Below are positions 7,639-42,045 of a stretch of DNA of 61,471 nucleotides, one piece after another. The translations under genes and the position numbers were made by a program. The notes under the pieces are model-generated. The model was not told the DNA's origin and made no database searches. It saw nothing but the letters and a program-made list of their open reading frames with translations. The first letter of the stretch is position 1, and every line of letters begins with the position of its first letter. Origin of the DNA: an uncultured Lentisphaerales bacterium (lineage in GTDB: Bacteria > Verrucomicrobiota > Lentisphaeria > JABSQK01 > UBA12247); assembly GCA_943788985.1 (NCBI GenBank), contig CALSSJ010000014.1, positions 1-61,471 of the forward strand, given 5' to 3'.

Positions 7639-8954
7639 ATGGAGCAGGTCTCGAAGCAATATCCCGGTAAGCTGGCGGTTGATCGAGTAGATTTTTCGTT
7701 GCGGCCAGGTGTGATCCGGGCGCTGATGGGGGAGAATGGCGCAGGAAAATCTTCGCTTATGAAGATGCTGGCAGGGGCGTTAGCGGATTACACCTTGCAT
7801 ACTTTTGTGGCCGGCAAGCCAGTTTCACTGCAGACGCCCGCCCAGGCAGCGGCGTGCGGAATCGGCATGGTCTACCAAGAGCTGAGCACGGCGCAGCCGA
7901 TCAGCATCGGGGAAAACTTACTGGTGGGTCGCCTGACGGTTTCTGCTTTCGGGCTAGTGAATCGCAAGGCACTGGCCGAAGAAGCGCGGAGCTGTCTTAA
8001 GCAGGTGGGCCTAGAGCATCTGGACCTGGAGGCGCGCATCAAGGAGATCAGCCAGCACGAGACGCAGCTCGTCGAGCTTGCCGAGGTGCTCGGGCGTAAG
8101 CCAAATATTCTGGTGATGGATGAGCCGACCTCGGCCTTGTCGCACAGCGAGTTCGAACGGCTTTCCGAGATTATTCACAAGCTTCGGGCGCAGGGGATGT
8201 CGATTATCTACATCTCGCATCATCTGCCGGAGATTTTCACCATTGCCGATCGGGTTACGGTGATGCGTGACGGGAAAAAGTCGGCGAGGACGATATTGCC
8301 AATGTCACCCGGCAGTCACTGGTGCGGATGATGTTGGGGCAGACGATCGACGAGTTCTATCATCGGCGCGAGCCCAAGCTTGGTACGCCAATGCTCACGG
8401 TACAGCACCTGACGCGCCTTGGCTTCGTCCACGACATTAGTTTTGAGCTACAGACACTTGGAATCTATGCGATTGTACGCCACATACCCGGCACGTTACC
8501 GTTCTGCGCGCGCTCCTTTGCCCCCATCACGGAGTTAGGAAGCTACGCGCCGGAGATGAAGCTGCTCGCCATGGATAACGCAAACCTCGAGACCGAAGGC
8601 ACCATGCAGCTCGTTTCGGTCTGGCTGACCAAGCATGGCGACAACCTGAAGGGCATCATTCTTGCCGGAGACGGCTTCTCCATGACCGGCACGCTCGAAG
8701 CCGTGAAAAAGGCGGGGCGCTCCGACTTGATCATCGTCGCGGCTGGAAACAGCAAGACTGGCATGGACTCGATTATGGCTGGAGAAGCTCTCGCGATCAC
8801 TTATCAGTCTGCGGAGGGCTGCGTTGCGATCGCGGTCCGTGCGGCTGCCCGCTGGTTCAGGGGCGAAGTGCTGGATTCCGTGATCTACTTGCCCAAGCAC
8901 ATCATCACCCCGAGAGACGTCGCCAACTTTATGCCGGCACAGTGGTTAGTTTGA
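7639..8954 (+). pseudogene. Decayed sugar ABC transporter: RbsA-like ATPase N-half (frameshifted) fused to the C-terminal part of a periplasmic sugar-binding protein
   Basis: GENGAGKSSLMK, MDEPTSAL, YISHHL; frame change near 8280-8320; after HDISFEL the sequence switches to binding-protein-like text (TYQSAEG...AARWFRGE...YLPKHIIT...F.PAQW). Second ATPase domain and permease are absent. Confidence 0.8.
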
Positions 8955-8983: not shown

Positions 8984-9565
8984 ATGGCTGACATTCGAGA
9001 CATTCGTAGCTTACCCGCCCGAGAGCTTGCGACAGCGATCGGGCGATTCGTCGGCTATCTGCTGGTTGCCAGCATCGTCTGGGTAGAAACAGGTCTCGGG
9101 GCCACCGTGGTTGCTCTGATGCATGCGGTAAGCCAGCCCTTTATCTCCCTGCTTCAACCGTTGGTCGAACCCGGTGCCACTGGTGCGGATGAGTTTCTCA
9201 ACCAATCCGCCCAGGCGTTGAGCGGCACGGCCAAACCGCTCCTGGAGACCACGTCCTACTACACCATTCTGCTCGCTCCTGCACTGGTCCTGCTGCTCCC
9301 GATCGGCTCACTGCGTACTCTCGCGCTACGAATCAGCTGCGCAGGAATGATTGTCGTGCTGCTGCACTGGGCACAAAGCATTGTGCACGCATTGTATGCC
9401 TATCACAGATCGATCAAGTATTTTGGCGGATCCTACGCGCCCATGAAAAACGAAGTCACCCTCCTGAGCGGCTTGAATTTTGCCGTCTGGCCGATGCTCG
9501 CGACATTGATCGCCTACGCGCTCACCCGGCGTTTCAGCCAATCGGAGGAAAGCAGTCATGACTGA
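8984..9565 (+). CDS. Multi-TM membrane protein coupled to the exosortase
   Basis: 193 aa, about 4 hydrophobic helices, GAGG RBS; overlaps the exosortase start by 8 bp. Confidence 0.7.
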   Translation: MADIRDIRSLPARELATAIGRFVGYLLVASIVWVETGLGATVVALMHAVSQPFISLLQPLVEPGATGADEFLNQSAQALSGTAKPLLETTSYYTILLAPALVLLLPIGSLRTLALRISCAGMIVVLLHWAQSIVHALYAYHRSIKYFGGSYAPMKNEVTLLSGLNFAVWPMLATLIAYALTRRFSQSEESSHD

Positions 9566-10130
9566 AACAGTGCTAGAAGACCGGCCGCTGACCGCAGATC
9601 CGCTTTGGTTTCTCGGCATCTCCGTGGGGTTGATTGCCCTCTTCGTGACCGCGGTTTCGATCTTTACCGAGCAGCAGTGGATGATTGATTACCGGACTGC
9701 CGATGTCACCTCAGGGCTCATGCGCATGCTAGGGCTCGAGGCCTCGAGTGAAGGCCGCAAGGTGGTCCTGATCTGGAATGACGTCACGCGCAATGCAAAC
9801 GTGGAGTACGGGTGTAATGGCCTGCTCATGTACCTCTTACTCACAGCGACCATGCTGCCGTTTCCGGTCAGCTGGCGCGAGCGAGCGCTTGGCTTGCTCG
9901 GCGGCTTACTATTTGCCTTCACCATCAATCAGATTCGGCTCGTCGCGCTGATGTTTTTGTTGTTCTGGGTCGACGCTGCCCGGTTCGAGATCTATCACAC
10001 GGGTTTCGGCCAGGCGTTCTCCGTCTTGAGCGTCGCATCCTATTGGTGGATCTGGCTCAAATTTCGCGGATCTGCGAACTCCGCACCGCCTGCTGACGTA
10101 CAGTCCGACGAGGTGCCAGACGCAGGATAG
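9558..10130 (+). CDS. Exosortase/archaeosortase family transpeptidase
   Basis: Cys-Arg-His triad motifs VEYGCNGL, INQIRL, IYHTG in a multi-TM 190-aa protein. Confidence 0.85.
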   Translation: MTETVLEDRPLTADPLWFLGISVGLIALFVTAVSIFTEQQWMIDYRTADVTSGLMRMLGLEASSEGRKVVLIWNDVTRNANVEYGCNGLLMYLLLTATMLPFPVSWRERALGLLGGLLFAFTINQIRLVALMFLLFWVDAARFEIYHTGFGQAFSVLSVASYWWIWLKFRGSANSAPPADVQSDEVPDAG

Positions 10131-10283: not shown

Positions 10284-11227
10284 TCAGATAGACGCGTCCC
10301 AGCAATTCTCGCCAAGGCCCAGAAATCTGGCCAAGCGAACGACTTCGAGCTCGGCCGCTTTTCGATACTCGCGTTCATCCAGCCGTCCGATGGCGTATCC
10401 AAAAGTCACGGTCAGGTGGCCGTCGGCAACTGCGGCATTTGCCCAGCGCACGATCTGCTCTGCCAGAGCACTGGCATCGCATAGTAGCCGAGCTTTCGCT
10501 TGGGCTTTGGTGTGTAGGCCTCGAACCGATAGGTCCAGTTCCACAGATGTTCGAACCGGGTTCTGTCCCCCAGACCGGATCAAAGGGGTCCAGGAGCCGA
10601 ACCTCAGCTGGCGTATTGTGGGCACAGCTCTGCTAATTCAAAGAGACATACTCTACAGAATCAACGAGGTCCACGTCAAGTCTCCCTGCGTCGGTCAGCA
10701 CCTTCAAACACTGCTGCCGTGCTTCCACTGTCGCAACAAGATTACCAAAATAAGAGAGCTCGCGTAATAGGAATTTACGGGTCATCGCACCCATGGCTCT
10801 TGACGCGGCCACGATGATTTCCTAAAAACGTTCCCCTTTGACAAGGTCTGCTCAAAGCCCGCGGCGGTCTTGTAAATACGAATGCCCTTTTTGCGCCGAG
10901 CGACTCTCAGAGCGCCTCAATTGGTTCATCCGTCTTTGGGTGAAGGATCTGCCACAGATCCTTCGAGAGGAAGCCATACCCGTACAAATAGCACTCCTCC
11001 AGCCCAAGTTCAGGATACGATCGCTCTAAGTCCCCGGCCCAATAATTCGTAACGCGGTGCCGCAAAATCAGATGCTGTGCCCGCGCTGGGCTACGAACTG
11101 GGACCGCTTGGACGAAGCCGAAACGCTCCAGCGCTTTGGCCAGGCCACACGGGGGAAGCAGACCGCTGCTCACCACTCGCTTTCTGGACTGATCCAACGA
11201 AGTCTTCCTTGATAGGATGCTACTCAC
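10284..11227 (-). pseudogene. YcaQ/AlkZ-like winged-helix DNA glycosylase family remnant
   Basis: Fragments in several frames: GFVQAVPVRSPARAQHLILRHRV..Y.AGDLER.YP; EAYTPKPKRKLGYYAMPVLW; WAN....G.L.V.FGY...LARFLGL. Confidence 0.75.
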
Positions 11228-11278: not shown

Positions 11279-12037
11279 TTAAGTCAGCGTGACGGTGCCG
11301 GCGACATGAGCGGAAAACCCGGTTGGGGTCTGAAGCACGAGGGCACCGTCGGCATTGACGTTGCGGCAGATGCCGGTGGTGCTGTCGTGCTCTGTGGAAA
11401 TGGTTACTTTGCGACCAGTCAGATACGAGCAGGTGCGGAGTTCGCAAACGACGGAGTCCGGAGAGTTGCGGAGTTCGCAAATTCCGGCTTGCAGGGCATC
11501 GAGGACGGCTGAAAGGACGTCGGTGACTGAGAGGTCGTTGCGTAGTTCGCACAGGGAGATGGCGCTGGTTGCGATGTCCGCAGTGGGAGTAATTGGATTG
11601 TTGACGTTTACGCCGATGCCGAGAATCAGGGCGTTTAGCTTGGCTGGCGAGGCCTCGATCAGGATGCCGCAAATCTTGCGATTTGCGATGTAGACGTCGT
11701 TGGGCCATTTAACCGAGAGGGGGGCGTCGGGCAGTAGCTGCTGCAGTGCGCGTCGAACGGCTAACCCAGAGGCGAGCGAGATCAGCGGCCAGGTCTCAGG
11801 CCGAAGCTTGAGCGCCTTGGTGTCGAGGATGATGGAGAAGGTGAGGGCACCGGTGGTGGCCTGCCAGCGGTTTTGGCGACGGCCACGGCCTGCAGTCTGG
11901 TTTTTGACCCAAATCAGGGTGACTGGAGCAAGTGGCTCGCTCTTGGCGACTAGCTCCTTGGCTAGGTCGTTGCTGGAGCCTGCGGTCTCGTGCAGTTGGA
12001 TCGTGTCGGGCCAGCTGTGGATGGGTTTAGTAGACAC
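11279..12037 (-). CDS. birA: Biotin--[acetyl-CoA carboxylase] ligase without an HTH domain
   Basis: SSND, QTAGRGRRQNRW, KWPND, KICGILIE, GIGVNV. GTG at 12037 chosen as start; it overlaps the upstream stop. Confidence 0.93.
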   Translation of the reverse strand: MSTKPIHSWPDTIQLHETAGSSNDLAKELVAKSEPLAPVTLIWVKNQTAGRGRRQNRWQATTGALTFSIILDTKALKLRPETWPLISLASGLAVRRALQQLLPDAPLSVKWPNDVYIANRKICGILIEASPAKLNALILGIGVNVNNPITPTADIATSAISLCELRNDLSVTDVLSAVLDALQAGICELRNSPDSVVCELRTCSYLTGRKVTISTEHDSTTGICRNVNADGALVLQTPTGFSAHVAGTVTLT

Positions 12038-13079
12038 CTTCGACAATCTTCTTTTTGCTGGCACCAAAGGGGCGAACTTGGCCAACTCCGTCCCAGGGAT
12101 AGCCTGGGATGGGGGGACAGCGGACGGCTTCGTCGCGCTCAAGGAAGCGTGGCACGAAGAACTCGTGGGTCATGGTGGTGAGCTCGACGCGGCCCCATTC
12201 TCCGTAGGCGACGGTCTGGTCAGTGTCGTCTGGATTCACAACCCGGGTGACGGCGCGGGGCTGTGGGGCATAGTAGGTGACTTCGTAGTTTTCTGCGGCG
12301 GTGAGCTTCTTGCTGTGCGCCAGGCCCATCAGGGTGTTTCCATAGACGGGCTTGAAGGCTACTTTGTTTTCGAGCACTTCTTCGACAATGAAGCGGACAG
12401 TTTGGGGGCTCATTTCGGTGCCGCCACAGAAGACGCCTTTGATGCCGCAGTGGGGCAGGGAGATGCGCTCGCCAAGGGCTTCGAGCAGCCGCGGGGTGGT
12501 GAACAGGGCAGAGACTTTGCGGTGCTTGAGGATGGTGACTGCTTGGTCGACGACGTGCTCCATGTAGGCCTGGGCCTGCTTGTGCTCGCCATTGCGAATG
12601 AGCCGCTTGACCCAGCGTGGGTCGAGGTCGATGAAGTAACAGCTGCCGCCGCGGTAGTTGGCGAGATGCTCGATGGACAGGCGCAGGCGGCGCGGCCCGG
12701 TGGGGCCGATCATCAGCCAGTTGGTGCCACGGGGGAAGTCGTCGTCGGAGAGGGTGTCGCCGAAGGATTCGTAGTCGTGCTTGTAGTCGTCCCAGCCAAT
12801 GCGCTGCTTGGGCATGCCGGTGGTGCCGCCGGTCTCGAAGATGTTGAACGGGCGCCCTTTGTACTTCTGCGGCACCCAGCGCTCTGGTTCTTCGAAGCGC
12901 AGCCAGTCGTCTTCGAAATGTGGGAATTTGCGGAGTTCGCAAAAGCTGGTGATTTCTCGACGCGGGTCCCAGCCTTGGTCGGCGGCCCAGTCAAGCCAGA
13001 AGGGGCAGCCGGTATCGGGGCTGAAGTGCCAGTCAAGGATTTCGCGGAGGTGTTGGGCGAGCTGTTCTTGGGGAGACAC
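12027..13079 (-). CDS. EhpF/GriC-like atypical adenylate-forming enzyme
   Basis: WHFSPDTGCPFWL, ETGGTTGMPK phosphate loop, GPTGP, FIDLDPRWVK, LFTTPRLLE, GGTEM, YGNTLMG, V.YGE.GRV, RFLERDEA. GTG start at 13079 with GGAG RBS; the 597-aa track ORF is over-extended. Confidence 0.8.
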   Translation of the reverse strand: MSPQEQLAQHLREILDWHFSPDTGCPFWLDWAADQGWDPRREITSFCELRKFPHFEDDWLRFEEPERWVPQKYKGRPFNIFETGGTTGMPKQRIGWDDYKHDYESFGDTLSDDDFPRGTNWLMIGPTGPRRLRLSIEHLANYRGGSCYFIDLDPRWVKRLIRNGEHKQAQAYMEHVVDQAVTILKHRKVSALFTTPRLLEALGERISLPHCGIKGVFCGGTEMSPQTVRFIVEEVLENKVAFKPVYGNTLMGLAHSKKLTAAENYEVTYYAPQPRAVTRVVNPDDTDQTVAYGEWGRVELTTMTHEFFVPRFLERDEAVRCPPIPGYPWDGVGQVRPFGASKKKIVEGVY

Positions 13080-13083
13080 CGCG

Positions 13084-14499
13084 TTACTCCGCCGCAATTG
13101 CGTACAGCTGAGTCTTGGTGGCGATGTACAGTACGCCATTGGCAGCAGTGGCGGTGCCGTAGACGGTCTCGCGCATGTCGATGGTGCGGATGTGTTGCTT
13201 GGTCTTGGCATGGGCAAAGATGTTGATCTTGCCGGTTTCGTCGCCGATGTAGACTTTTCCGTCTGCGACCATGGTGGAGCCCCAGACGGCGCTCTTGAGG
13301 TCATGGCTCCAGTGGGCTTTGCCGGTCTTTTGGTCGAGGCAGTAGAGGATGCCGGAAATATCAGCGATGTAGACGAGGCCGTCGAGCACGGAGGCGGTGC
13401 TGATGGTGCGGCCGAACTCGTCGTTACCGCGGTGCCAGAGGGCGCCGGTCTTGGTGATGTCGCCGGATCCTTTGGCGTTGATGGCGTAGAGATGGCCGAT
13501 GCCGACGCCGTGCTCGGGGTCCTGGCCAACGCCGATGTAGACGACGTTATCAGCAAAGACAGGCGTGGCGATGAGGTTGTTTTTGGTGCCATAGCCGCCC
13601 AACTCCCAGACTGCATCAGGGGGATTGCAGTTGAACTTCCAGATGAGTTTTCCGTCCTTGGGGCTGAGGGCGTAGAGCCAGCCATCGCCGCCAGGCAGGT
13701 AGATCTGTTTCTGGCCGTCGACGATGCCCATGGAGGGGGAGGACCACTGGCCATGCAGGATTCGCTCTTCGACGGCAAACTCCCAGAGCAACTCGCCGGT
13801 CTTGGCGTCAAAGGCGACAAAGCTGGGGGCGGAGTTGACGGGAATATTTAAGTGGCCTTCGTCGACGCCGTTGCCAGTGATGAGGAAGACGATGCCGTCA
13901 TCGACGAGCGGGGAGGAGGTGGCGAGGTTGTGAGGAAAGACGCCGAGCTCTTCGATCATGTCGTAGGACCAGATGACGTCTGCGTGGCCGGTGGCGGTGT
14001 AGGTCTCGGCGGTCATGCCGTCGTTCTGGTCGGCAAAGCCGTTGACATCGGCACAGGTAGCTTCGCAGCGATTGCTGAGGTACCAGAGGCGGTCGCCGAC
14101 AACTTGTGGCGTGGAGCAGATGCCCTGATGGGGCCAGTCGTTTACGCGCCCGGCAGAGAGCTTGTCGTGCACGGCTTGCCAAAGGAAGGAGCCGTCCTTC
14201 TCGGCGACGACGACGATGTTGCCTTTATCGCCTTTTACGTTCGGGTCGAGGTGGGCTTCGTTGTTGGTGCCGATGTAGACGCGGCCATCGGCAACGACGG
14301 CGCTGCCGTAGGTCAGCGAGCCGAGCTTGACCTTCCATTTTACACTTTTGCCGGACTTCACGTCCCAATCATCCGGGAGGTTCTTCTCGACGGTGTTGAT
14401 CATGTTTCGGCCGGAGCCGCCGCCCCAATGGGGCCAGTCTGCAGACTGACCGGCGATGGCGAGCAGGGCGCAGAGTAAAGTGGTCTGGTGGAAATTCAT
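13084..14499 (-). CDS. Exported PQQ-binding-like beta-propeller protein
   Basis: Signal peptide then DWPHWGG..GRN; repeated A.D.KTG..LW Trp-docking motifs. Confidence 0.9.
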   Translation of the reverse strand: MNFHQTTLLCALLAIAGQSADWPHWGGGSGRNMINTVEKNLPDDWDVKSGKSVKWKVKLGSLTYGSAVVADGRVYIGTNNEAHLDPNVKGDKGNIVVVAEKDGSFLWQAVHDKLSAGRVNDWPHQGICSTPQVVGDRLWYLSNRCEATCADVNGFADQNDGMTAETYTATGHADVIWSYDMIEELGVFPHNLATSSPLVDDGIVFLITGNGVDEGHLNIPVNSAPSFVAFDAKTGELLWEFAVEERILHGQWSSPSMGIVDGQKQIYLPGGDGWLYALSPKDGKLIWKFNCNPPDAVWELGGYGTKNNLIATPVFADNVVYIGVGQDPEHGVGIGHLYAINAKGSGDITKTGALWHRGNDEFGRTISTASVLDGLVYIADISGILYCLDQKTGKAHWSHDLKSAVWGSTMVADGKVYIGDETGKINIFAHAKTKQHIRTIDMRETVYGTATAANGVLYIATKTQLYAIAAE

Positions 14500-14522
14500 A
14501 GGGTGTGTCTCAGTTGCTTGGT

Positions 14523-16724
14523 TCAAGGACGGTCAATGATGACGTTGTCAAAGAGAACTTCGGTCCCTTTGGACTTGGAGGTAACGCCGACGGCGTAGGC
14601 ATAGAGGCCGGGGCTGCCGGCGGGGTTCGGATGGTCATCCTTCATCTGAATGGACCAAGCCGCGGGCTCGTCGGTGCCTTGCTTCCAGACTTTAGCGCTG
14701 ATGGTACCGACGCCTTCGGCGATCGAAACGTGCAGCTTGGCCGTGTACCAGGCATCGCCTTGCCAGGGAAACTCGACTTCTTGGATGATGCGCGGAACGG
14801 GGGCCCAAGAAACGAGGCGCAAGCGGCGAGTACGCTCCGAGCTACCGATCATGATCAGCAGATAGCGACTGTTGATCAGGCCCATGTCGGGCAAGAAGCG
14901 TTTCTTCTTCGTGATACCGAAGATGTCTGCTTGGACGCTGTAGCCAGCTTCGAGGGCGGGGGTCATGTAGCAGCGGAGGCGGGCGAAGGGCGGGGCCGGG
15001 CGCTCGGCGAGCTTGCGCAGGACTTTGTTGCCATCGTGTTCGGTGACGATGGCCTTGAGCTTAGAGGTGATCCAGCCGGGAGGGGGCAGGTCGGCCTTGA
15101 GTGACTCGAAGTCCTCCTCGTAGGGGAGGGCCGGGAAGATGCGAACGCGCGAGTTGAGGGTGGTCTCTTCAATTCTGGCAGTTACCAAGCCAGCCTGGAT
15201 GCGGTTGCCGCCCGCGCGGAACAGGCCGGTGCCGGACATGCCGCCGGATATTCCCTTGACTGCGAACTTCGCCTTGGGGGGCGTTTCGCCTGTAGGGGTG
15301 CCCTTGGCATCGAAGCCGACGAGACGGAACTGGAGGCTGTCGTTGGGGGCGAGCCAGGTTTCGGCTGGCTCAAGCTGCCAGTGCGCAGTCGGGCCGGGCT
15401 TGGGCATGCTGGGCGAGGCAGTGGAGATAGCGGAGCGAAAGTCAGCAGGCTTGGTGGAGAGGCAGAACATGCGGCTGAGTGTGCTGATGACGACCTTACC
15501 GTCGGCGATCGCCGGACTGGAATAGACCTCGTCTGGTCCGCCGTCGGGCCGGGTGAACTTCTCTTCGCTCAGGAGCTGGCAGCCTGCCTTGGATACTTTG
15601 AGAATGCGCCAGGCACCGGGGACATCGCCTAGGTAGATCTTACCGTCGGCATAGACTGGCGAGCCCTTGCCCTCGTTGCCGGCGTCAAAGGTCCAGTACT
15701 GGGTGCCGGTGTTGGCATCAAGGCAGATCAGGGTGCCGGTATTGGTGACCGCGTAGAGTAGACCACCGTGGAGGGCGGGCGTTGCAAAATGATCGGACAG
15801 GCCTTCGACGCGCCAGAGTTCCTTGCCGGTGCCAGCCTCGAGGCAGAGCAGGCGGCCCATAACTCCTGAGTCGACGTTGGTGCGGCCATGGACGGCGTAG
15901 ACCTTTCCGTCATGATAGAGGACAGAGGCCATGATGGCATCTTCGGACAGGGGAACGTTCCACAGGAGCTCACCGGTGGTGGGACGCATCGCGGCGATGC
16001 TACCGTCGCCAAGTCCGGTAAACATGATCCGGCCTTGGTCAAAGGTGGTGATGACAGGGACCGAGTAGGAGGTGTTCTTGGGCTTGCCCCCGACTCCCTG
16101 CAGCCAGCGAATCTCGCCGGTGAGCTTATCGAGACCGAAGAAGCGGTGCTGGCCCTTGCCATGCGGGCCCCAGCTGCTGGTGAGCGAGCTAATGATGACC
16201 AGGTCGCCTTCAACCACGGGGCTGTAGGTCCGTCCGCCGTAGCCGGAGATCCGGCCCAGTTCCTCACTGAGGCTGTGCTCCCAGATGATCTCGCCGTCTT
16301 GGTCGAAGCAAAACATGAGGCCCTGAATGCCGTGTGCGTAAATGTAGCCGGTTTCGGGGTCGATTGCCAGATTGGACCAGCCGAGGCGGTGGGCGACGAT
16401 GTCAGTTAGGAAGGCATTAAAACGATGTTCCCAGATGACCTTGCCGGTGTCTAGATCGAGGACCACGACGCGTTCCTGGGGCACTTCGCCATGGCTGGTG
16501 CGGGAGATGGCATAGACGCGCCCTTTGTGGATGAGCGGCGCGGATCGCACGCCGACGTCTGCGGACCAGAGCAAGTTCTCACCGGTCTGGGACCAAGTGT
16601 CCGGCAGGCCAGTTTCGGCCGATGCACCATGTGCGCCGTGCCCTCGCCACTGCGTCCAGTCCTGGGCTAGGGCGGAGCCGGCGAGAAGGGCGATGAGAAC
16701 GGGAATGCTACGAAGTACTGTCAT
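14523..16724 (-). CDS. Exported PQQ-binding-like beta-propeller protein with extra C-terminal beta-rich domain(s)
   Basis: Signal peptide, DWTQWRG, repeated LD..TG...W motifs; C-terminal YEEDFE...GSPGLY....FDNV resembles a lectin/ConA-like sandwich. Confidence 0.9.
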   Translation of the reverse strand: MTVLRSIPVLIALLAGSALAQDWTQWRGHGAHGASAETGLPDTWSQTGENLLWSADVGVRSAPLIHKGRVYAISRTSHGEVPQERVVVLDLDTGKVIWEHRFNAFLTDIVAHRLGWSNLAIDPETGYIYAHGIQGLMFCFDQDGEIIWEHSLSEELGRISGYGGRTYSPVVEGDLVIISSLTSSWGPHGKGQHRFFGLDKLTGEIRWLQGVGGKPKNTSYSVPVITTFDQGRIMFTGLGDGSIAAMRPTTGELLWNVPLSEDAIMASVLYHDGKVYAVHGRTNVDSGVMGRLLCLEAGTGKELWRVEGLSDHFATPALHGGLLYAVTNTGTLICLDANTGTQYWTFDAGNEGKGSPVYADGKIYLGDVPGAWRILKVSKAGCQLLSEEKFTRPDGGPDEVYSSPAIADGKVVISTLSRMFCLSTKPADFRSAISTASPSMPKPGPTAHWQLEPAETWLAPNDSLQFRLVGFDAKGTPTGETPPKAKFAVKGISGGMSGTGLFRAGGNRIQAGLVTARIEETTLNSRVRIFPALPYEEDFESLKADLPPPGWITSKLKAIVTEHDGNKVLRKLAERPAPPFARLRCYMTPALEAGYSVQADIFGITKKKRFLPDMGLINSRYLLIMIGSSERTRRLRLVSWAPVPRIIQEVEFPWQGDAWYTAKLHVSIAEGVGTISAKVWKQGTDEPAAWSIQMKDDHPNPAGSPGLYAYAVGVTSKSKGTEVLFDNVIIDRP

Positions 16725-16737
16725 GATGGGGACTCGT

Positions 16738-17952
16738 TCAGTTTGAGGCAGAGAGATCTAGGCAGACCAGCGCGCTCTTACTGCGAACGAGCAGTTTCTT
16801 GTTGGCGACGACCGGCGCTGTCCACGACTGTTTTTCTTCAAAAGGCTGGATGCGGCCAAGCTCCTGGTAGCTGTCTGGTGTCATGCGGGCCATGATGACG
16901 GAGCCATCCATATCACTGAGAGCGATGAGAACGTCATCCACACCAGTGAGTGCGCCATGTCCAACGCCAATCTCGTTGCTGCTCGTGGTGCGCCACTTTT
17001 CTTTGCCGGTGTACGGGTCGAAACAGACAATGAAGCGGGGTTCGGTAGTGGTGTAGATGTGGCCTTTGTAGAAGATCGGGCTGCTGAAACGGGTGTTGAT
17101 TTTTTTGTTTTCCCAGACGATTTTACAGGAGTGGCCTTTGATTTTGAGCAGGGCGGTTTTGTTGCGATAGCCGCTGGTGACGAGGACGCCGTCGTCGGAG
17201 ATGATAAAGGGGGTGGAGCCGTTGACGTCGTACTTGGTCGGCCAATCCATGGACCAGATGATGTCGCCGGATATCGGGTCGACCCCGCGGATGCTTTTGC
17301 CTGAAAAGGCGATGTATTGTTTCGTGCCGTTGATGGTGCCGATGGCTGGGGTGGCGTAGCCCAGTTGATCGGTACCGCCACCTTGCCAGATGGTTTTTCC
17401 GGTTTCTAGGTGGAGGCCCGTCAGGAGCGCGTTTTTGCCGGCAGTCATAGTCAGGAGCCGACCGTTGTCGATGATGGGGGAGTTACTGACTTGCCATTTG
17501 GGGAGCTCGCCCTCGGTGAAGCGCTTGGTCTGCCAGAGGCGTTCCTGGGTGCGAATGGTTACGGCGGTGACGGTACCCAAGCTGCTGATGGTGTAGATGA
17601 CACCGTTTTGCACCAAGGGGGTAGTGCGGGTGAGGCCGAATTTGTGTTCCTTGGCTTCTTTGAAGCTGTGACGCCAGAGTTCCTTGCCGCTCTTCTGGTC
17701 CAGGGCCAGTAGGACTTCCTGGCCATTCTTGTGATCCTGGATGTAGACGACACCCGCGACGACGACGGGACCGCCGTAGCCGCCATCAGACATGTTACGC
17801 CGCCATAGCTCTTTCGGCGGGTTTGCCGTCCAATCCTTGTTGATGCCGGTCTCGGTCGAGTAGCTTTTGCCGTCAGGGCCCAGGAAGCGCGGCCAGTCGA
17901 GGGCCTGCAGGGAGGTCGTGAGAACGAGAGAGAGTACGATAAGACGGATCAT
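16738..17952 (-). CDS. Exported PQQ-binding-like beta-propeller protein
   Basis: Signal peptide, DWPRFLGP, Trp-docking repeats, terminal WTAPVVAN.KLLVR....LVCLDL. Confidence 0.9.
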   Translation of the reverse strand: MIRLIVLSLVLTTSLQALDWPRFLGPDGKSYSTETGINKDWTANPPKELWRRNMSDGGYGGPVVVAGVVYIQDHKNGQEVLLALDQKSGKELWRHSFKEAKEHKFGLTRTTPLVQNGVIYTISSLGTVTAVTIRTQERLWQTKRFTEGELPKWQVSNSPIIDNGRLLTMTAGKNALLTGLHLETGKTIWQGGGTDQLGYATPAIGTINGTKQYIAFSGKSIRGVDPISGDIIWSMDWPTKYDVNGSTPFIISDDGVLVTSGYRNKTALLKIKGHSCKIVWENKKINTRFSSPIFYKGHIYTTTEPRFIVCFDPYTGKEKWRTTSSNEIGVGHGALTGVDDVLIALSDMDGSVIMARMTPDSYQELGRIQPFEEKQSWTAPVVANKKLLVRSKSALVCLDLSASN

Positions 17953-18386
17953 GGACTGGCTTCCTTTAGATACGGGCGAAGATGTTCGCGAATCCAGTCG
18001 GGAATACTGATCGCTTCGGGCGGGCAGCCTGTGCCGAGTTCAATCTGACAGCAGACGCTGGTGGATGTGCCACTGGCAACGACAGTTCCGTGATGGACGA
18101 TGTCTGCAGAATAGGTGACGGATTTATTGCCGATGCGGTCGATGCTTAGTTGGACGTCGAACTCGTCCTCAAAGCGCAGCGGGCGGGAGAACTCGAAGGC
18201 GCAAGAGCGGCGTGGCCAGCCCATGATGTGACCGTCATCAAGCTTATGGTTGATGCAGACGTTGAAGCTCCGGAACAGCGCGTGCTCGGTGGCTTCCATG
18301 TACTGATAGAACTGAGTGAAATGCACGATGCCAGCCATGTCTGTGTCTGCGTATTCGACACGTCGGGTTACTACAAAGGGGTGCAT
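17949..18386 (-). CDS. Acyl-CoA thioesterase, 4HBT/YbgC hot-dog family
   Basis: RRVEYADTDMAGIVHF..FY.YME..E, PLRFED; ATGA overlap with the next gene. Confidence 0.92.
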   Translation of the reverse strand: MHPFVVTRRVEYADTDMAGIVHFTQFYQYMEATEHALFRSFNVCINHKLDDGHIMGWPRRSCAFEFSRPLRFEDEFDVQLSIDRIGNKSVTYSADIVHHGTVVASGTSTSVCCQIELGTGCPPEAISIPDWIREHLRPYLKEASP

Positions 18387-18499: not shown

Positions 18500-19531
18500 C
18501 TACTTGGCATTAAGCGTGGCGCGCGGGTAGCTCCCGAGCACGCGAAAAGACTGGCAGCAAGCCTGGAGATCTTCGAGGGCCTGCTTGCTGGCACCTGAGT
18601 CCGCGTGGCCTTCATAATCAATGAAGAAGCAGTATTGCCAGTTTCCGGTCTGCGGGCGACTCTGGATCATGGTGAGGTTGATCCCGTGCTGGCTAAATGG
18701 GCTGAGAGCCGTATGCAGTCCGCCGATACGGTCTCGCAGAACGATGACGACGGAGGTCTTATCGTCGCCGGTCGCGGCGGGTTGATCGCGACCGATGACG
18801 AGAAAGCGTGTGGTGTTGTCGGCCATGTCCTCGATGTTCTCTGCCCGTACGGGCAGGTGATAGAGCTCCGCTGCGAGGAGCCCGGCAATGGCCGCGGTGG
18901 TTGCGGACTGCGCAGCTTTCTCAGCGGCTCGCGTGGTGCTGGACACAGCGACGCAGTCGACGTGCGGCAGGTGTTGCTGGAGCCAGCCGCGGCACTGAGC
19001 TAAAGCCTGTGGATGGCTGCAGACGGTGGTGACCTCGGAGAGCTCGCAGTTGCTCAGTAGGCTGTGATGAATCGGCAGCAGGATTTCTCCGCAAATGCCG
19101 ACGTTCGCATTCTGGAACATGTCGAAGGTGTGGGTGACAGCGCCCTCCGTGGAGTTCTCGATGGGAACGACGCCATAGCACACATTCTGCTTTTCAACGC
19201 TGTGAAAGACCCCGGAGATCGTCTCTGCGGTCTCGCCGAGGCATTGTTCGCCAAAGGCGTTGAGCGCAGCTTGGTGGGTAAAAGAACCTGCGGGGCCGAG
19301 ATAGGCGACGGTGACCGGCGCGTGAGCGGCGAACTCATCGAGCACGATCTCGCGCCAGATCCCGTGGACCAACGGCGCCGGCAGGTCCGGCTCGGAGGTG
19401 GCCACAGCATCTGTGGTTCGGCGCACTCGTGCGGGCAGGTCGTCTGCAACTGGCGCGGAGGAGTCGCCAGCTAAAGAGCGCCGCTGCTTTAGCAAGGCGG
19501 CGATTTGGCGGTCTATGTCTCCGGCAGTCAT
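18500..19531 (-). CDS. pheA: Prephenate dehydratase with a divergent N-terminal chorismate-mutase-like domain
   Basis: VAYLGPAGSFTHQAA, VVPIENSTEG, SHPQALAQC, NTTRFLVIG, ACT domain; ATGA overlap with the argF stop. Confidence 0.93.
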   Translation of the reverse strand: MTAGDIDRQIAALLKQRRSLAGDSSAPVADDLPARVRRTTDAVATSEPDLPAPLVHGIWREIVLDEFAAHAPVTVAYLGPAGSFTHQAALNAFGEQCLGETAETISGVFHSVEKQNVCYGVVPIENSTEGAVTHTFDMFQNANVGICGEILLPIHHSLLSNCELSEVTTVCSHPQALAQCRGWLQQHLPHVDCVAVSSTTRAAEKAAQSATTAAIAGLLAAELYHLPVRAENIEDMADNTTRFLVIGRDQPAATGDDKTSVVIVLRDRIGGLHTALSPFSQHGINLTMIQSRPQTGNWQYCFFIDYEGHADSGASKQALEDLQACCQSFRVLGSYPRATLNAK

Positions 19532-20430
19532 GCCATCAACTTGGCCATAATGGCTTTCTGGGCGTGCAGGCGGTTTTCTGCTTGATCCCAAATGACTGAA
19601 TGGCAGCCGTCCAGTACGGAGCCGGTAATTTCTTCGCCACGATGCGCGGGTAAGCAGTGCATGATGCAGACGTTATCCGCGGCTGCGGCCACGGTCGCGT
19701 CGTTCACTTGGAACGGACCGAGTGCGGACAGGCGCTCGACCTTCTCTTCTTCGAACCCCATGCTCACCCAGACATCTGTGTAGAGCACGTGGGCACCAGA
19801 GGCTGCGGACTCCGCATCTTCGGTCAGTGTGACGGAGCCGTTTTGAGAGACCTCGGGCAAGCCGTTGAGATCCAGTTGATACGCAGCGGGGGCGCAGATG
19901 TGCAGGTCCAAGCCAGTCTGATAGGCAGCCAGTGCCCAAGTGCGCGCCATGTTGCTGGCTCCGTCTCCAAAGTAGGCAACCTTGCGACCTTCCAGCGTGC
20001 CGAAGGTCTCCTGCATGGTCAGCAGGTCGGCGATTAGCTGGCACGGGTGAAACTGATCGGTTAAGGCATTGATCACCGGGACGCTTGCGAACTTCGCAAA
20101 CTCCGTTAGGTCTTCGTGGGCGTGGGTCCGAATCACAACTCCTTGGACGTAGCGCGCGAGCACCTGGGCGGTGTCATGAATGGACTCGCCGCGGCCGATT
20201 TGTAGGTCCTTGGCTCCCAAGAACAGGGCATTGCCGCCGAGCTCGTGAATGCCCACCTCGAAAGACACGCGGGTGCGGGTCGAGGCCTTGGAGAAGATCA
20301 TGGCGATGGTCTTGCCAGCAAGGATGTCGCGGCCGCTGGTAGCGCGTGATTTCTTGAGTTCATGGGCGTGAGCCAGGATGTCGTGTAATTCCTGGGGGGA
20401 CAGGTCTGCCAGATTGGTCAGATCCTTCAT
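19528..20430 (-). CDS. argF: Ornithine carbamoyltransferase
   Basis: STRTRVSFE, HPCQ, YTDVWVSMG, HCLPAHRG, QAENR. Confidence 0.97.
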   Translation of the reverse strand: MKDLTNLADLSPQELHDILAHAHELKKSRATSGRDILAGKTIAMIFSKASTRTRVSFEVGIHELGGNALFLGAKDLQIGRGESIHDTAQVLARYVQGVVIRTHAHEDLTEFAKFASVPVINALTDQFHPCQLIADLLTMQETFGTLEGRKVAYFGDGASNMARTWALAAYQTGLDLHICAPAAYQLDLNGLPEVSQNGSVTLTEDAESAASGAHVLYTDVWVSMGFEEEKVERLSALGPFQVNDATVAAAADNVCIMHCLPAHRGEEITGSVLDGCHSVIWDQAENRLHAQKAIMAKLMA

Positions 20431-21611
20431 GCTTGGGCCTCCGCGAGAGAATCTGCGAGGATCGCAACGGCTTGATCAATCTCGCCGCTGGTCACCGTTA
20501 AAGGGGGAAGTAGACGCAACACGTTGGCCCCGGCGCTAAGCACCAAGAGACCGCGTTTTGCGGCTGCTGCGACCACGCTGCTGACGGCATGGTCGCACGG
20601 TAAGCCGATCAATAGGCCAAGGTGCCGGACGTCGTGCCAGCTGGGAGAATTGGCCGTTAATTGGGTAAGTTGCTCAGCAAGATACTGGGCAGCTTGGATG
20701 CAGTTCGCCAGAATGTTCTGGTCCCGGATAGTGTCGAGCACGGCTCCGGCTGCGGCGCAAGCTAGAGGGGTGCCGCCGAAGGTCGTAGCATGACTGCCGA
20801 CACCGAGCACATCGAGCCAGTCAGGGCGAACGCCAAAGCCACCGATCGGGTAGCCATTACCAAGGGCTTTGGCCAGGGAAAAGGCGTCTGGCTGGATGCC
20901 ATAGAGCTGGTGTGCGAACATCGCACCGCAGCGCCCGATCCCGGTCTGCACTTCATCACAGAGCAAAAGAATGCCGCATTTATCGCACAACTCGCGGAGA
21001 GCAGTGAGGTAGGCTTGGTCCGCGGGGTAGACGCCACCCTCTGCTTGCACCGGCTCGAGCAGTACGGCGGCAGTCTCGGGCGTGATGGCATCACGGACGG
21101 CTTGGAGGTCGTTGAAAGGCACGAAGGAAAAGCCAGTCATTGCCGGCTCGAAGCCTTCGCGAATTGCCGGCTTATCGGTGGCCGCCAGTGTCCCCAAGGT
21201 CCGACCGTGGAAGGAGTGCTGCATGGCAATGATCTGGTTCTTACCCTGCGGATTGCCCCACTTTCTGGCGAACTTGATGAGACCTTCGTTGGCCTCGGCA
21301 CCGCTGTTCGCGAAGAAGAACTTGTAGCCATTGCTCAGGGTCGAGAGGCGTTCTGCGAGCTCGGCCTGAGGCTGGTTGTAGAAGAGATTGGAGACATGCA
21401 CAAGTTGGGCTGCCTGTGCGGAGACCGCAGCAGTGACTGGCTCGGGACAATGGCCGAGGTTACAGACGCTGATTCCTGAGGTGAAATCCAAGTATTCCTT
21501 TCCGTCGGCATCCCACACGCGACTCCCGCTGCCTCGCACGAGCGCTATCTTCGGTGCGTAGACCGGGAGCACGTGAAGGTCGTAGAGATGCGAAATGGCT
21601 GCAGTGTTCAT
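20427..21611 (-). CDS. argD: Acetylornithine aminotransferase
   Basis: NSGAEANE, SFHGRT, DEVQTGIGRCG, LAKALGNG; lies in the arg cluster. Confidence 0.95.
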   Translation of the reverse strand: MNTAAISHLYDLHVLPVYAPKIALVRGSGSRVWDADGKEYLDFTSGISVCNLGHCPEPVTAAVSAQAAQLVHVSNLFYNQPQAELAERLSTLSNGYKFFFANSGAEANEGLIKFARKWGNPQGKNQIIAMQHSFHGRTLGTLAATDKPAIREGFEPAMTGFSFVPFNDLQAVRDAITPETAAVLLEPVQAEGGVYPADQAYLTALRELCDKCGILLLCDEVQTGIGRCGAMFAHQLYGIQPDAFSLAKALGNGYPIGGFGVRPDWLDVLGVGSHATTFGGTPLACAAAGAVLDTIRDQNILANCIQAAQYLAEQLTQLTANSPSWHDVRHLGLLIGLPCDHAVSSVVAAAAKRGLLVLSAGANVLRLLPPLTVTSGEIDQAVAILADSLAEAQA

Positions 21612-21674
21612 AGGGGAAACTCTTGGATTAAACTACGTGCGGCTCGGGGGGATAGATGCGCCGAGCGGGCTCTT

Positions 21675-22547
21675 TCATGTGCCAATGATCTGGGTGCCGA
21701 CGCCGTGATCGGTAAAGATCTCGAGCAGCAACGAATGCTGAAGGCGCCCGTCAATGAGATGGACCTTGCGGACGCCGGCGGAGATCGCTGCCGAGGCGCT
21801 GGCAATCTTCGGAGCCATGCCGCCGGAAATTACACCGTCGGCCACAAGCTGAGCGATTTCCTTGGTGTGTAATGTGGAGATGAGGCTGTCTGGATTCTTT
21901 GGATCCGCCAGCAGGCCGGGGACATCGGAGAGAAAGACCAGCTTGGCTGCCTGAAGTGCCTGGGCGACGCGGCAGGCGCACAGGTCGGCGTTGATGTTAA
22001 AGGGACGCTGCTGGTCATCGAGGCCAACCGGTGTGATGACGGGAAGTTCGTTGGCCGCGAGCAACTCACAGATTGGGCCGACATCCACACTGACGACATC
22101 CCCGACGAAGCCGAGATCGACCGGGGCACCAGCCTCATCGGTGTGAGAAAGCCTACGGGCACCCAGAATTTTCTTGCCGGAAAGGTCGCGCGCCCTGCCT
22201 CCGAGCTTGCGAACGCCGTCCACAAGCTTCTCGTTGACGTCGCTGTGCAAGACATCGTCGACCACGCCAATCGTGTCCTTACAGGTATACCGCATGCCAT
22301 TGATGAAGCGACTGGCAATGCCGAGCTGGCCCAGCCGGGTGCTGATGGCCTTTCCGCCACCGTGGACAATGACCGGTTTCATGCCTACGCATTCCATGAA
22401 GACGATGTCCCGCAGGGTGCTGGCCACGCAGTCTGGATCTTCCATAGCGCTACCACCAAATTTGACGACAACGGTGTCCCCGCGAAACCGCTGGATGTAC
22501 GGCAGAGCTTCAATCAGCACTGCGGCTTTGTCGATATATTTGCGCAT
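21675..22547 (-). CDS. argB: Acetylglutamate kinase
   Basis: LIEALPYI, VVKFGG, VHGGG, NINAD, GGMAPK, LLEIFT..GVGT. Confidence 0.97.
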   Translation of the reverse strand: MRKYIDKAAVLIEALPYIQRFRGDTVVVKFGGSAMEDPDCVASTLRDIVFMECVGMKPVIVHGGGKAISTRLGQLGIASRFINGMRYTCKDTIGVVDDVLHSDVNEKLVDGVRKLGGRARDLSGKKILGARRLSHTDEAGAPVDLGFVGDVVSVDVGPICELLAANELPVITPVGLDDQQRPFNINADLCACRVAQALQAAKLVFLSDVPGLLADPKNPDSLISTLHTKEIAQLVADGVISGGMAPKIASASAAISAGVRKVHLIDGRLQHSLLLEIFTDHGVGTQIIGT

Positions 22548-22653
22548 TTTGGCAGGAGTATCCGCGTAAGAAAAAACAGCTAACAAACCACTTTCGCTCG
22601 AGATGTCAAGAATCTCCGGGAGAAATGGTCATAGCCGGGGATTCGTTGAAAAC

Positions 22654-38368: not shown

Positions 38369-39430
<1,062 letters not shown>

Positions 39431-39444
39431 GATCGTTCCTTTGG

Positions 39445-39485
39445 AAGCGGCTCTGCGGTCTGAGTTTAGGCCCGGGGCCGCTTTT
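39445..39485 (+). terminator. Probable intrinsic terminator after gap
   Basis: AAGCGGCTC...GGGCCGCTT stem followed by a short T run. Confidence 0.6.
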
Positions 39486-39493
39486 GTGTGCCT

Positions 39494-42045
<2,552 letters not shown>

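Follow-up and report, generated by a model that had tools for sequence, protein, structure and literature searches.

An EhpF/GriC-type adenylating enzyme and its reductase partner in a split 11-gene unit of an uncultured Lentisphaerales bacterium

The fatty acid reductase proteins LuxD, LuxE and LuxC catalyze the release of an acid, its re-activation and its reduction to the aldehyde. Acyl-AMP formation followed by reduction to the aldehyde has been described for the protein pair GriC/GriD from the grixazone pathway of Streptomyces griseus (PMC10179220, citing Suzuki 2007), and EhpF is known from the D-alanylgriseoluteic acid cluster of Pantoea agglomerans (PDB 3hgu, 3hgv, 3l2k), where the downstream neighbor of ehpF is ehpG (PMC11278526). 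For Planctomycetales strain 10988, which forms 3,5-dibromo-p-anisic acid (also covered in a review, PMC12078418), an adjacent chorismate lyase-halogenase gene pair, baaA-baaB, has been proposed in a paper that mentions neither a reductase nor propellers and reports no knockout (bioRxiv 10.1101/723874). Here we describe a gene system that resembles each of these in part and is centered on an EhpF/GriC-like adenylating enzyme encoded on a 61,471-nt stretch (positions 1 to 61,471 of contig CALSSJ010000014.1) of an uncultured Lentisphaerales bacterium (assembly GCA_943788985.1, genome 83.6% complete); this whole stretch is termed the window in the following.

The enzyme has the P-loop and the terminal EGVY in common with EhpF, and the same genome encodes, on another contig (C22), an EhpG-like partner of aldehyde dehydrogenase (ALDH) fold with an aligned Cys. 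Judged by sequence, the two constitute an enzyme pair of the EhpF/EhpG-GriC/GriD kind within an undescribed and widespread system, of which no description was found in the literature outside subscription journals. The window enzyme differs from Pantoea EhpF in belonging to a separate clade from the Planctomycetes-Verrucomicrobia-Chlamydiae (PVC) group and Acidobacteria, and the incomplete genome contains no match for phzA/B, D, F and G and only weak partial matches for phzE. With GriC/GriD, compared here via plasmid genes labelled 'arylcarboxylate reductase' (31-35% identity), the logic of a two-protein carboxylic acid reductase is alike, whereas the genomic context in our case consists of propellers, a halogenase and a family 4 glycosyltransferase (GT4). 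In comparison with the Lux proteins, a hotdog thioesterase takes the place of LuxD, and the LuxC family has no match in the genome. The import-and-reduce layout of the present system recurs, albeit without propellers, on plasmid NC_014299.1 of the haloarchaeon Halalkalicoccus jeotgali (L123), where symporter, EhpF-like, ALDH-family and short-chain dehydrogenase/reductase genes occur together. A likeness to baaA-baaB resides in adjacent chorismate-lyase-like and halogenase genes on C22 as well as in L008, L009, L012, L111, L114, L135, L136 and genome G254. In the latter, an island of alcohol dehydrogenase, radical SAM, chorismate-lyase-like and halogenase genes (G254:C1:1549914-1555530) is located 4.5 Mb from the adenylating enzyme and resembles the published baaAB layout, while G240 and G280 carry a second adjacent pair of radical SAM and halogenase genes.

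Among solved structures, EhpF is the only significant relative of the window enzyme (E 8e-49, residues 12-351) and the only protein retrieved by a profile search at E <= 0.01; the two are 33% identical over their full length. The P-loop reads ETGGTTGMPK (family pattern ETGGTTGxPK), and the chain ends with xGVY, as in EhpF, at the point where the C-terminal subdomain of PaaK would begin, such that the C-terminal subdomain of ANL enzymes is missing. The EhpF/GriC-like character proposed in a preliminary description of the window is thus borne out. Relatives of the enzyme number at least 8000; when GTDB genomes were searched by pattern, 575 of the first 600 matches turned out to be related to it. 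The best 80 loci encode enzymes with 57-77% identity and stem mostly from Planctomycetota, Verrucomicrobiota and Acidobacteriota. A quick tree with 56 rows groups 43 of them in the PVC/Acidobacteria clade (SH-aLRT 99), separate from the EhpF-type genes of plasmids and at a great distance from PaaK; L012 and L013 are among the three rows nearest to the window enzyme. Owing to long branches, the deeper order of this tree is uncertain.

In the preliminary description, the enzyme had been called an orphan, and this applies to the window only: neither a reductase nor a carrier protein or phenazine gene is present among the window open reading frames (ORFs) scanned (13 and 35 in two scans), but contig C22 encodes a reductase of the EhpG/GriD type. 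Reciprocal best matches connect Pantoea ehpF with the window enzyme and the gene at the ehpG position with the C22 reductase (23% identity, E 4e-22). On plasmids, the best matches of the reductase are mostly ALDH-family genes adjoining matches to ehpF or 'arylcarboxylate reductase' genes. According to the alignment, the catalytic Cys292, Asn168 and Lys189 are kept, and His occupies the position of a Glu that is hydrolytic in classical ALDH. A search of the genome for a GriD/LuxC-like reductase, as proposed in the preliminary description, yields the EhpG/GriD form and no LuxC. In its turn, the reductase gene on C22 precedes genes for a chorismate-lyase-like protein, a flavin-halogenase-like protein, a small membrane protein, a PaaK-like CoA ligase and a DUF3179 protein. 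On a Phycisphaerales chromosome (L012), all 11 genes lie in one contiguous run, in which the five genes of the window (thioesterase, propellers C, A and B, adenylating enzyme) are followed by the six of C22 in the same order (reductase, lyase, halogenase, membrane gene, ligase, DUF3179). The five window genes and the six C22 genes are two halves of a split 11-gene unit. Both halves are also present in G180, each at a contig end; no exact overlap exists between these ends and adjacency is thus unproven. The two break regions share no repeat. Just upstream of the reductase gene (C22 ~197970-198360), near a gene that is presumably PIN-like, a short element is located that is repeated on several contigs and may mark a rearrangement. 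Further components reside on contigs C43 (GT4 and two additional propellers) and C21 (a MacB/FtsX-type permease).

With regard to the halogenase, the intact L012 protein has 11 solved relatives at E <= 1e-15, ten of which are halogenases or halogenase-type flavoproteins (nine named halogenase, one 'flavoprotein/dehydrogenase'). The closest ones include CmlS, ChlB4 and PltA, and several of these act on tethered substrates. The motifs GxGxxG and WxWxIP and the conserved Lys are found in intact orthologues and, in separate pieces, in the copy of this genome; the C22 flavoprotein also scores, below cut-off, to the QhpG/LodB maturases. The chorismate-lyase-like protein matches, by atlas features, clusters at 0.95-0.97 in which 11-19% of the members carry the Chor_lyase/Rv2949c families. 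Two cysteine motifs were observed in addition, an N-terminal Y-C-x-x-C in GT4 (L100:9083-10363, C43; 8/8 aligned sequences), which possibly represents a metal or redox site, and a C-x-x-C in the DUF3179 protein (L099:13781-15649, C22).

Conservation of the gene set was followed in the best 80 related loci, many of which are truncated, with a match threshold of at least 80 bits, and in 151 Planctomycetota genomes, for each of which 7-12 candidates were scored. The reductase occurs in 71 of the 80 loci, a symporter in 48, an Fe-alcohol dehydrogenase in 44 and propellers A and B in 42 each, followed by GT4 (19), the permease (8), radical SAM (7), thioesterase (5) and halogenase (3). Where the locus offers room, the reductase gene follows within 1.5 kb of the enzyme gene in 61 of 66 cases, and propellers A and B are linked to it in 36 of 54 loci with sufficient upstream sequence. 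An enzyme match was present in 36 of the genomes; the 30 at 50% identity or above were kept as carriers, and the six at 32-36%, none of which has a reductase match, were excluded before counting. When the 30 carriers are compared with the other 121 genomes, the reductase is found in 30 vs. 0, GT4 in 30 vs. 11, halogenase and radical SAM in 29 vs. 0 each, propeller A in 28 vs. 0, propeller B in 28 vs. 3, thioesterase in 24 vs. 0 and CoA ligase in 20 vs. 0. The linkage to propellers that had been anticipated is therefore seen at both levels, whereas that to the thioesterase stands mainly at the genome level, with few local cases (5 of 80 loci). Scattering does not abolish the pattern: enzyme and reductase genes are separated by megabases in G217 and G302 and are distributed over different contigs in G271, while G315 and G286 have a contiguous form of ~16-17 genes. 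In the phylum of the source organism, two of 150 genomes contain the enzyme and the same two contain the reductase, too few carriers for a linkage test; among 40 closer relatives, nine carry the enzyme. The excluded sequences constitute a distant EhpF-like clade (L125-L128 from G326, G283, G312 and G208 belong to it) for which no EhpG-type reductase was matched nearby or in those genomes; these enzymes are possibly true orphans.

A subtype of the system became apparent. The incomplete genome studied here, the G178 chromosome and G180 yielded no cluster-type gene for radical SAM, alcohol dehydrogenase or symporter, while G217 and G254 have all three. This shared absence therefore probably reflects a real subtype, in the three genomes of which a DUF3179 gene ends the cluster instead. 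The subtype would yield the aldehyde as its end product or rely on a different reductase.

The preliminary description had reported six co-oriented genes with overlaps or gaps of 23 bp or less, located 113 bp after pheA, and ORF order and spacing are exactly of this kind (Table 1). Thioesterase and propeller C genes overlap in an ATGA, gaps of 13, 23 and 4 bp separate propellers C and A, A and B, and propeller B and the enzyme, respectively, and enzyme and birA genes overlap by 11 bp. Pfam/NCBIfam scans confirmed 4HBT_2, PQQ_2 (three times), BirA and, for pheA, PDT/ACT, with a match of the enzyme to AMP-binding below cut-off. The enzyme-birA junction is unlikely to be an assembly artefact, because single contigs span it in one DNA run from each of two studies, namely X4 (11833-13988) and X7 (11797-13824); X4 comes from the same study as a possible source run. 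Window DNA is matched in marine and estuarine metagenomes. RNA-library contigs overlap parts of the operon and reach into the flanks as well, and therefore indicate neither transcription nor a single mRNA; a promoter and terminator scan of the window stayed at chance level.

Table 1. Positions of the genes of the window cluster and of the partner reductase on contig C22.
Feature	Position	Strand or location	Basis
Thioesterase, 4HBT/YbgC hotdog	17949..18386	-	PF13279 above cut-off
Propeller C, 404 aa, PQQ_2 repeats, signal-peptide-like start	16738..17952	-	PQQ_2 family match
Propeller A, 733 aa, PQQ_2 repeats	14523..16724	-	PQQ_2 family match
Propeller B, 471 aa from ATG 14499, PQQ_2 repeats	13084..14499	-	PQQ_2 family match
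EhpF/GriC-family adenylating enzyme, 350 aa, GTG 13079 start	12027..13079	-	EhpF similarity, ETGGTTGMPK
birA, housekeeping biotin ligase, GTG 12037 start	11279..12037	-	TIGR00121 above cut-off
EhpG/GriD-type reductase	C22 198681-200117	outside window	Pantoea ehpG-position gene match

The window thioesterase retains the conserved Asp of D-T-D-x-x-G, is 50% identical to its L012 orthologue and has aq_1494 and a 4-hydroxybenzoyl-CoA thioesterase as its best solved relatives (E 1e-10 to 5e-10); it likely releases an aryl acid from CoA. The three propellers are only 19-24% identical to one another and hence are not recent duplicates; propeller C shares 45% and 44% identity with the genes at the same place in L012 and L013, respectively. 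As to their suggested export, all three start with a signal-like hydrophobic stretch with a best 9-residue Kyte-Doolittle value of 2.96-3.07, compared with 0.6-1.6 in cytoplasmic genes, that ends just before a (Q)DW mature start. Propeller A combines a propeller of ~400 aa with an unnamed C-terminal region of ~300 aa, for which a resemblance to Ig-like and LamG-like domains is a lead only. Several Arg and N263 are invariant among 36 propeller A sequences, and H259, E262 and D265 are nearly so. In propeller B (37 sequences, mature numbering), H170, H196, H229, H310, D193, D307 and E309 are invariant along with Asn, in loops between strands. The clustering of these residues was deduced from such loop positions, and the invariant residues of both propellers make candidate ligand or metal sites. 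An AlphaFold2 model of propeller B (pLDDT 86.8, pTM 0.90) matches the folds of BamB, tetrathionate hydrolase and pyrroloquinoline quinone (PQQ) dehydrogenases; fold and repeat are held in common with PQQ-dependent dehydrogenases and BamB, but other residues are invariant here and identity amounts to just 12-18%. An assignment as PQQ dehydrogenases was rejected (TIGR03075/TIGR03074, 40-55 bits vs. a cut-off of 480; no vicinal Cys-Cys in any of the three), as was one as BamB (TIGR03300, 64-75 bits vs. 285). No match to pqqC was obtained in 5/5 genomes, although no control genome yielded one either.

Taken together, the 11-gene unit likely turns chorismate into a probably halogenated 4-hydroxybenzoate, likely adenylates this acid and reduces it to the aldehyde, and would export a derivative to the secreted propellers, a reading to which we attach slightly better than even confidence. 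Gene content, order, homology and co-inheritance are observed, while every chemical step, the substrate and the role of the propellers are deduced from them. As a lead, the chorismate-lyase-like protein would convert chorismate into 4-hydroxybenzoate, from which the PaaK-like ligase would form a CoA thioester as the tethered substrate of the flavin halogenase. After hydrolysis by the window thioesterase, the free acid would be converted by the window enzyme into an aryl-AMP, the acyl group of which would pass to the conserved Cys of the C22 reductase and be reduced there to the aldehyde with NAD(P)H. Modification and export of the product would fall to GT4, the MacB/FtsX-type permease and the small membrane protein. 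An aromatic acid substrate, as proposed from the window, is now better supported, since the C22 half contributes genes for a chorismate-lyase-like protein, a halogenase-like protein and a CoA ligase.

Several points weigh against this proposal. Hydrolysis of a CoA ester and subsequent re-activation of the acid cost two ATP. For two orthologues of the chorismate-lyase-like protein there is no Pfam match, and no meaningful PDB match was found. BaaB has been likened to Bmp5 (~44% similar), and baaAB could be compared by description only (bioRxiv 10.1101/723874). The present assembly contains the halogenase gene as three pieces and shows frameshifts in the genes for the membrane protein, an ABC ATPase and one of the propellers on C43, such that halogenation may have been lost in this genome. 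Among the carriers, CoA ligase and thioesterase exceed the threshold in only 20 and 24 of 30, and GT4 is not specific to aryl chemistry, because 11 of the 121 enzyme-less genomes also contain it. Moreover, thresholds were set by us after the score gaps had become visible, related genomes are not independent, and G178 served both as the center of the sample and as the source of the halogenase query.

Some of these points lead to the alternative that the system is decaying here, in which case the window genes would be the remains of a cluster that has been divided and in part destroyed. The unit is indeed divided, and the assembly shows frameshifts in four of the genes that lie beyond the window, but all five window genes are intact and 45-75% identical to their L012 orthologues, other runs match positions 11279-18386 with few differences and zero indels, and scattering is common in the system (G217, G271, G302). 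Unrelated genes in the same stretches of C22, C43 and C21, which we take to be HepA-like, sulfatase-like and TrmH-like, appear frameshifted, too, which suggests assembly errors, and we consider decay quite unlikely. That the enzyme is a stand-alone ordinary ligase of the PaaK/LuxE type beside unrelated genes is scarcely credible: its relatives are labelled 'PaaK-like adenylate-forming protein' in databases and the AMP-binding family is matched below cut-off, but EhpF is the only significant PDB match, a long branch leads to PaaK, the C-terminal subdomain is missing, LuxE has no match to the enzyme nor LuxC in the genome, and the linkage is conserved. EhpF-only matches, tree and conserved neighborhood thus refute a grouping with PaaK/LuxE, in agreement with the preliminary description.

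Other readings accept the gene set and assign a different end to it. The product could be a redox cofactor or shuttle, in which case the flavoprotein would hydroxylate or halogenate the ring, and propellers A and B, as periplasmic enzymes, would bind the aryl compound in its reduced and glycosylated form and re-oxidize it. Residues conserved beyond the repeat scaffold (His/Asp/Glu/Asn in propeller B, Arg/Asn/Glu in propeller A), the Fe-alcohol dehydrogenase and symporter of most carriers (44 and 48 of 80 loci), a parallel to the fungal aryl-alcohol redox cycle (PMC8140971) and the sub-threshold scores of the flavoprotein to QhpG/LodB maturases are consistent with such a role, as is the placement of GT4/permease/propeller genes beside NuoEF-like (5/9 loci) and NapH-like polyferredoxin genes (6/9) in enzyme-less genomes. 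Conversely, no re-import loop is visible in the variant formed by this genome (G000), G178 and G180, because alcohol dehydrogenase and symporter were not found there, and the propellers lack both the vicinal Cys-Cys and scores near those of PQQ dehydrogenases; a redox role appears rather unlikely to us. Alternatively, an envelope glycoconjugate or a secreted aryl glycoside could be formed, and the propellers would then serve the export route by binding or assembly, without catalysis. Chorismate lyase, aryl-AMP ligase and glycosyltransferase are the logic behind mycobacterial p-hydroxybenzoic acid derivatives (p-HBAD) and phenolic glycolipids, BamB-type scaffolds are the top fold matches of propeller B, and the permease is MacB/FtsX-like. 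This option is unlikely nonetheless: identity to BamB reaches only 16-18% with scores far below cut-off, polar residues under such strict conservation are more in keeping with a ligand site than with a mere scaffold, and no polyketide synthase or lipid carrier gene is among the recurrent neighbors annotated.

On a more speculative level, which we advance with low confidence, Planctomycetes, Verrucomicrobia and Acidobacteria might make a new halogenated, glycosylated aryl redox cofactor or shuttle that is exported to propellers without PQQ-dehydrogenase signature; propeller B might be a new His-ligated metalloenzyme, and the same export chassis might be fed by NADH-linked Fe-S chains in lineages without aryl reductase. 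In Planctomycetota genomes without the enzyme (L103, L104, L105, L109 and L110 from G188, G190, G196, G242 and G222, and L106 from G327), the block of GT4, ABC/permease and propeller genes is accompanied by genes for NuoEF-like proteins, an Fe-S oxidoreductase and a NapH-like polyferredoxin. DUF116-polyprenyl synthase or squalene-hopene-cyclase-like genes adjoin it as well in L108-L110. Annotation of these neighborhoods covered 55 of 127 unlabelled ORFs, chosen by us near GT4 genes, plus four others.

As to the genes adjoining the unit in the window, birA and pheA are incidental neighbors despite the overlap of birA with the enzyme gene. birA, pheA and argF have no match in any of the 80 related loci, and birA is the strongest PF03099 match and the only clear BirA match of the genome, such that its inclusion in the pathway is not upheld. 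Genes resembling argB, argD, argF and pheA (18500-22586) lead into the thioesterase gene on the same strand; no terminator-like site was found in the gap between pheA and thioesterase by the scan mentioned above, itself at chance level, and read-through from these genes is possible. For the pheA-like ORF, Pfam gives no match to a chorismate mutase domain. Beyond birA, an AlkZ-like fragment (10907-11227) is followed by an unassigned membrane gene overlapping an exosortase-family gene (8984-10130) that scores below the cut-offs of the named subtypes, and by a truncated sugar-ABC ATPase that runs into a binding-protein fragment (7639-8954). A nickel-insertion gene of the LarC type is located between gap and eno (38384-42045).

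New in this study are the split 11-gene variant, the genome-level counts of co-inheritance and the electron-transfer genes that partner the export chassis in place of the aryl reductase. About one-fifth of the sampled Planctomycetota genomes (30/151) keep the set together even when it is scattered, and it therefore gives the impression of serving a need of the cell rather than being an optional antibiotic cluster. Having neither alcohol dehydrogenase nor symporter nor radical SAM, the 11-gene variant represents a minimal set, and the system offers biochemistry an abundant, conserved two-protein carboxylic acid reductase. It points to a possibly widespread marine source of halogenated aromatics and would open a first way to the function of PQQ-repeat propellers, many of which are still unassigned in these phyla.

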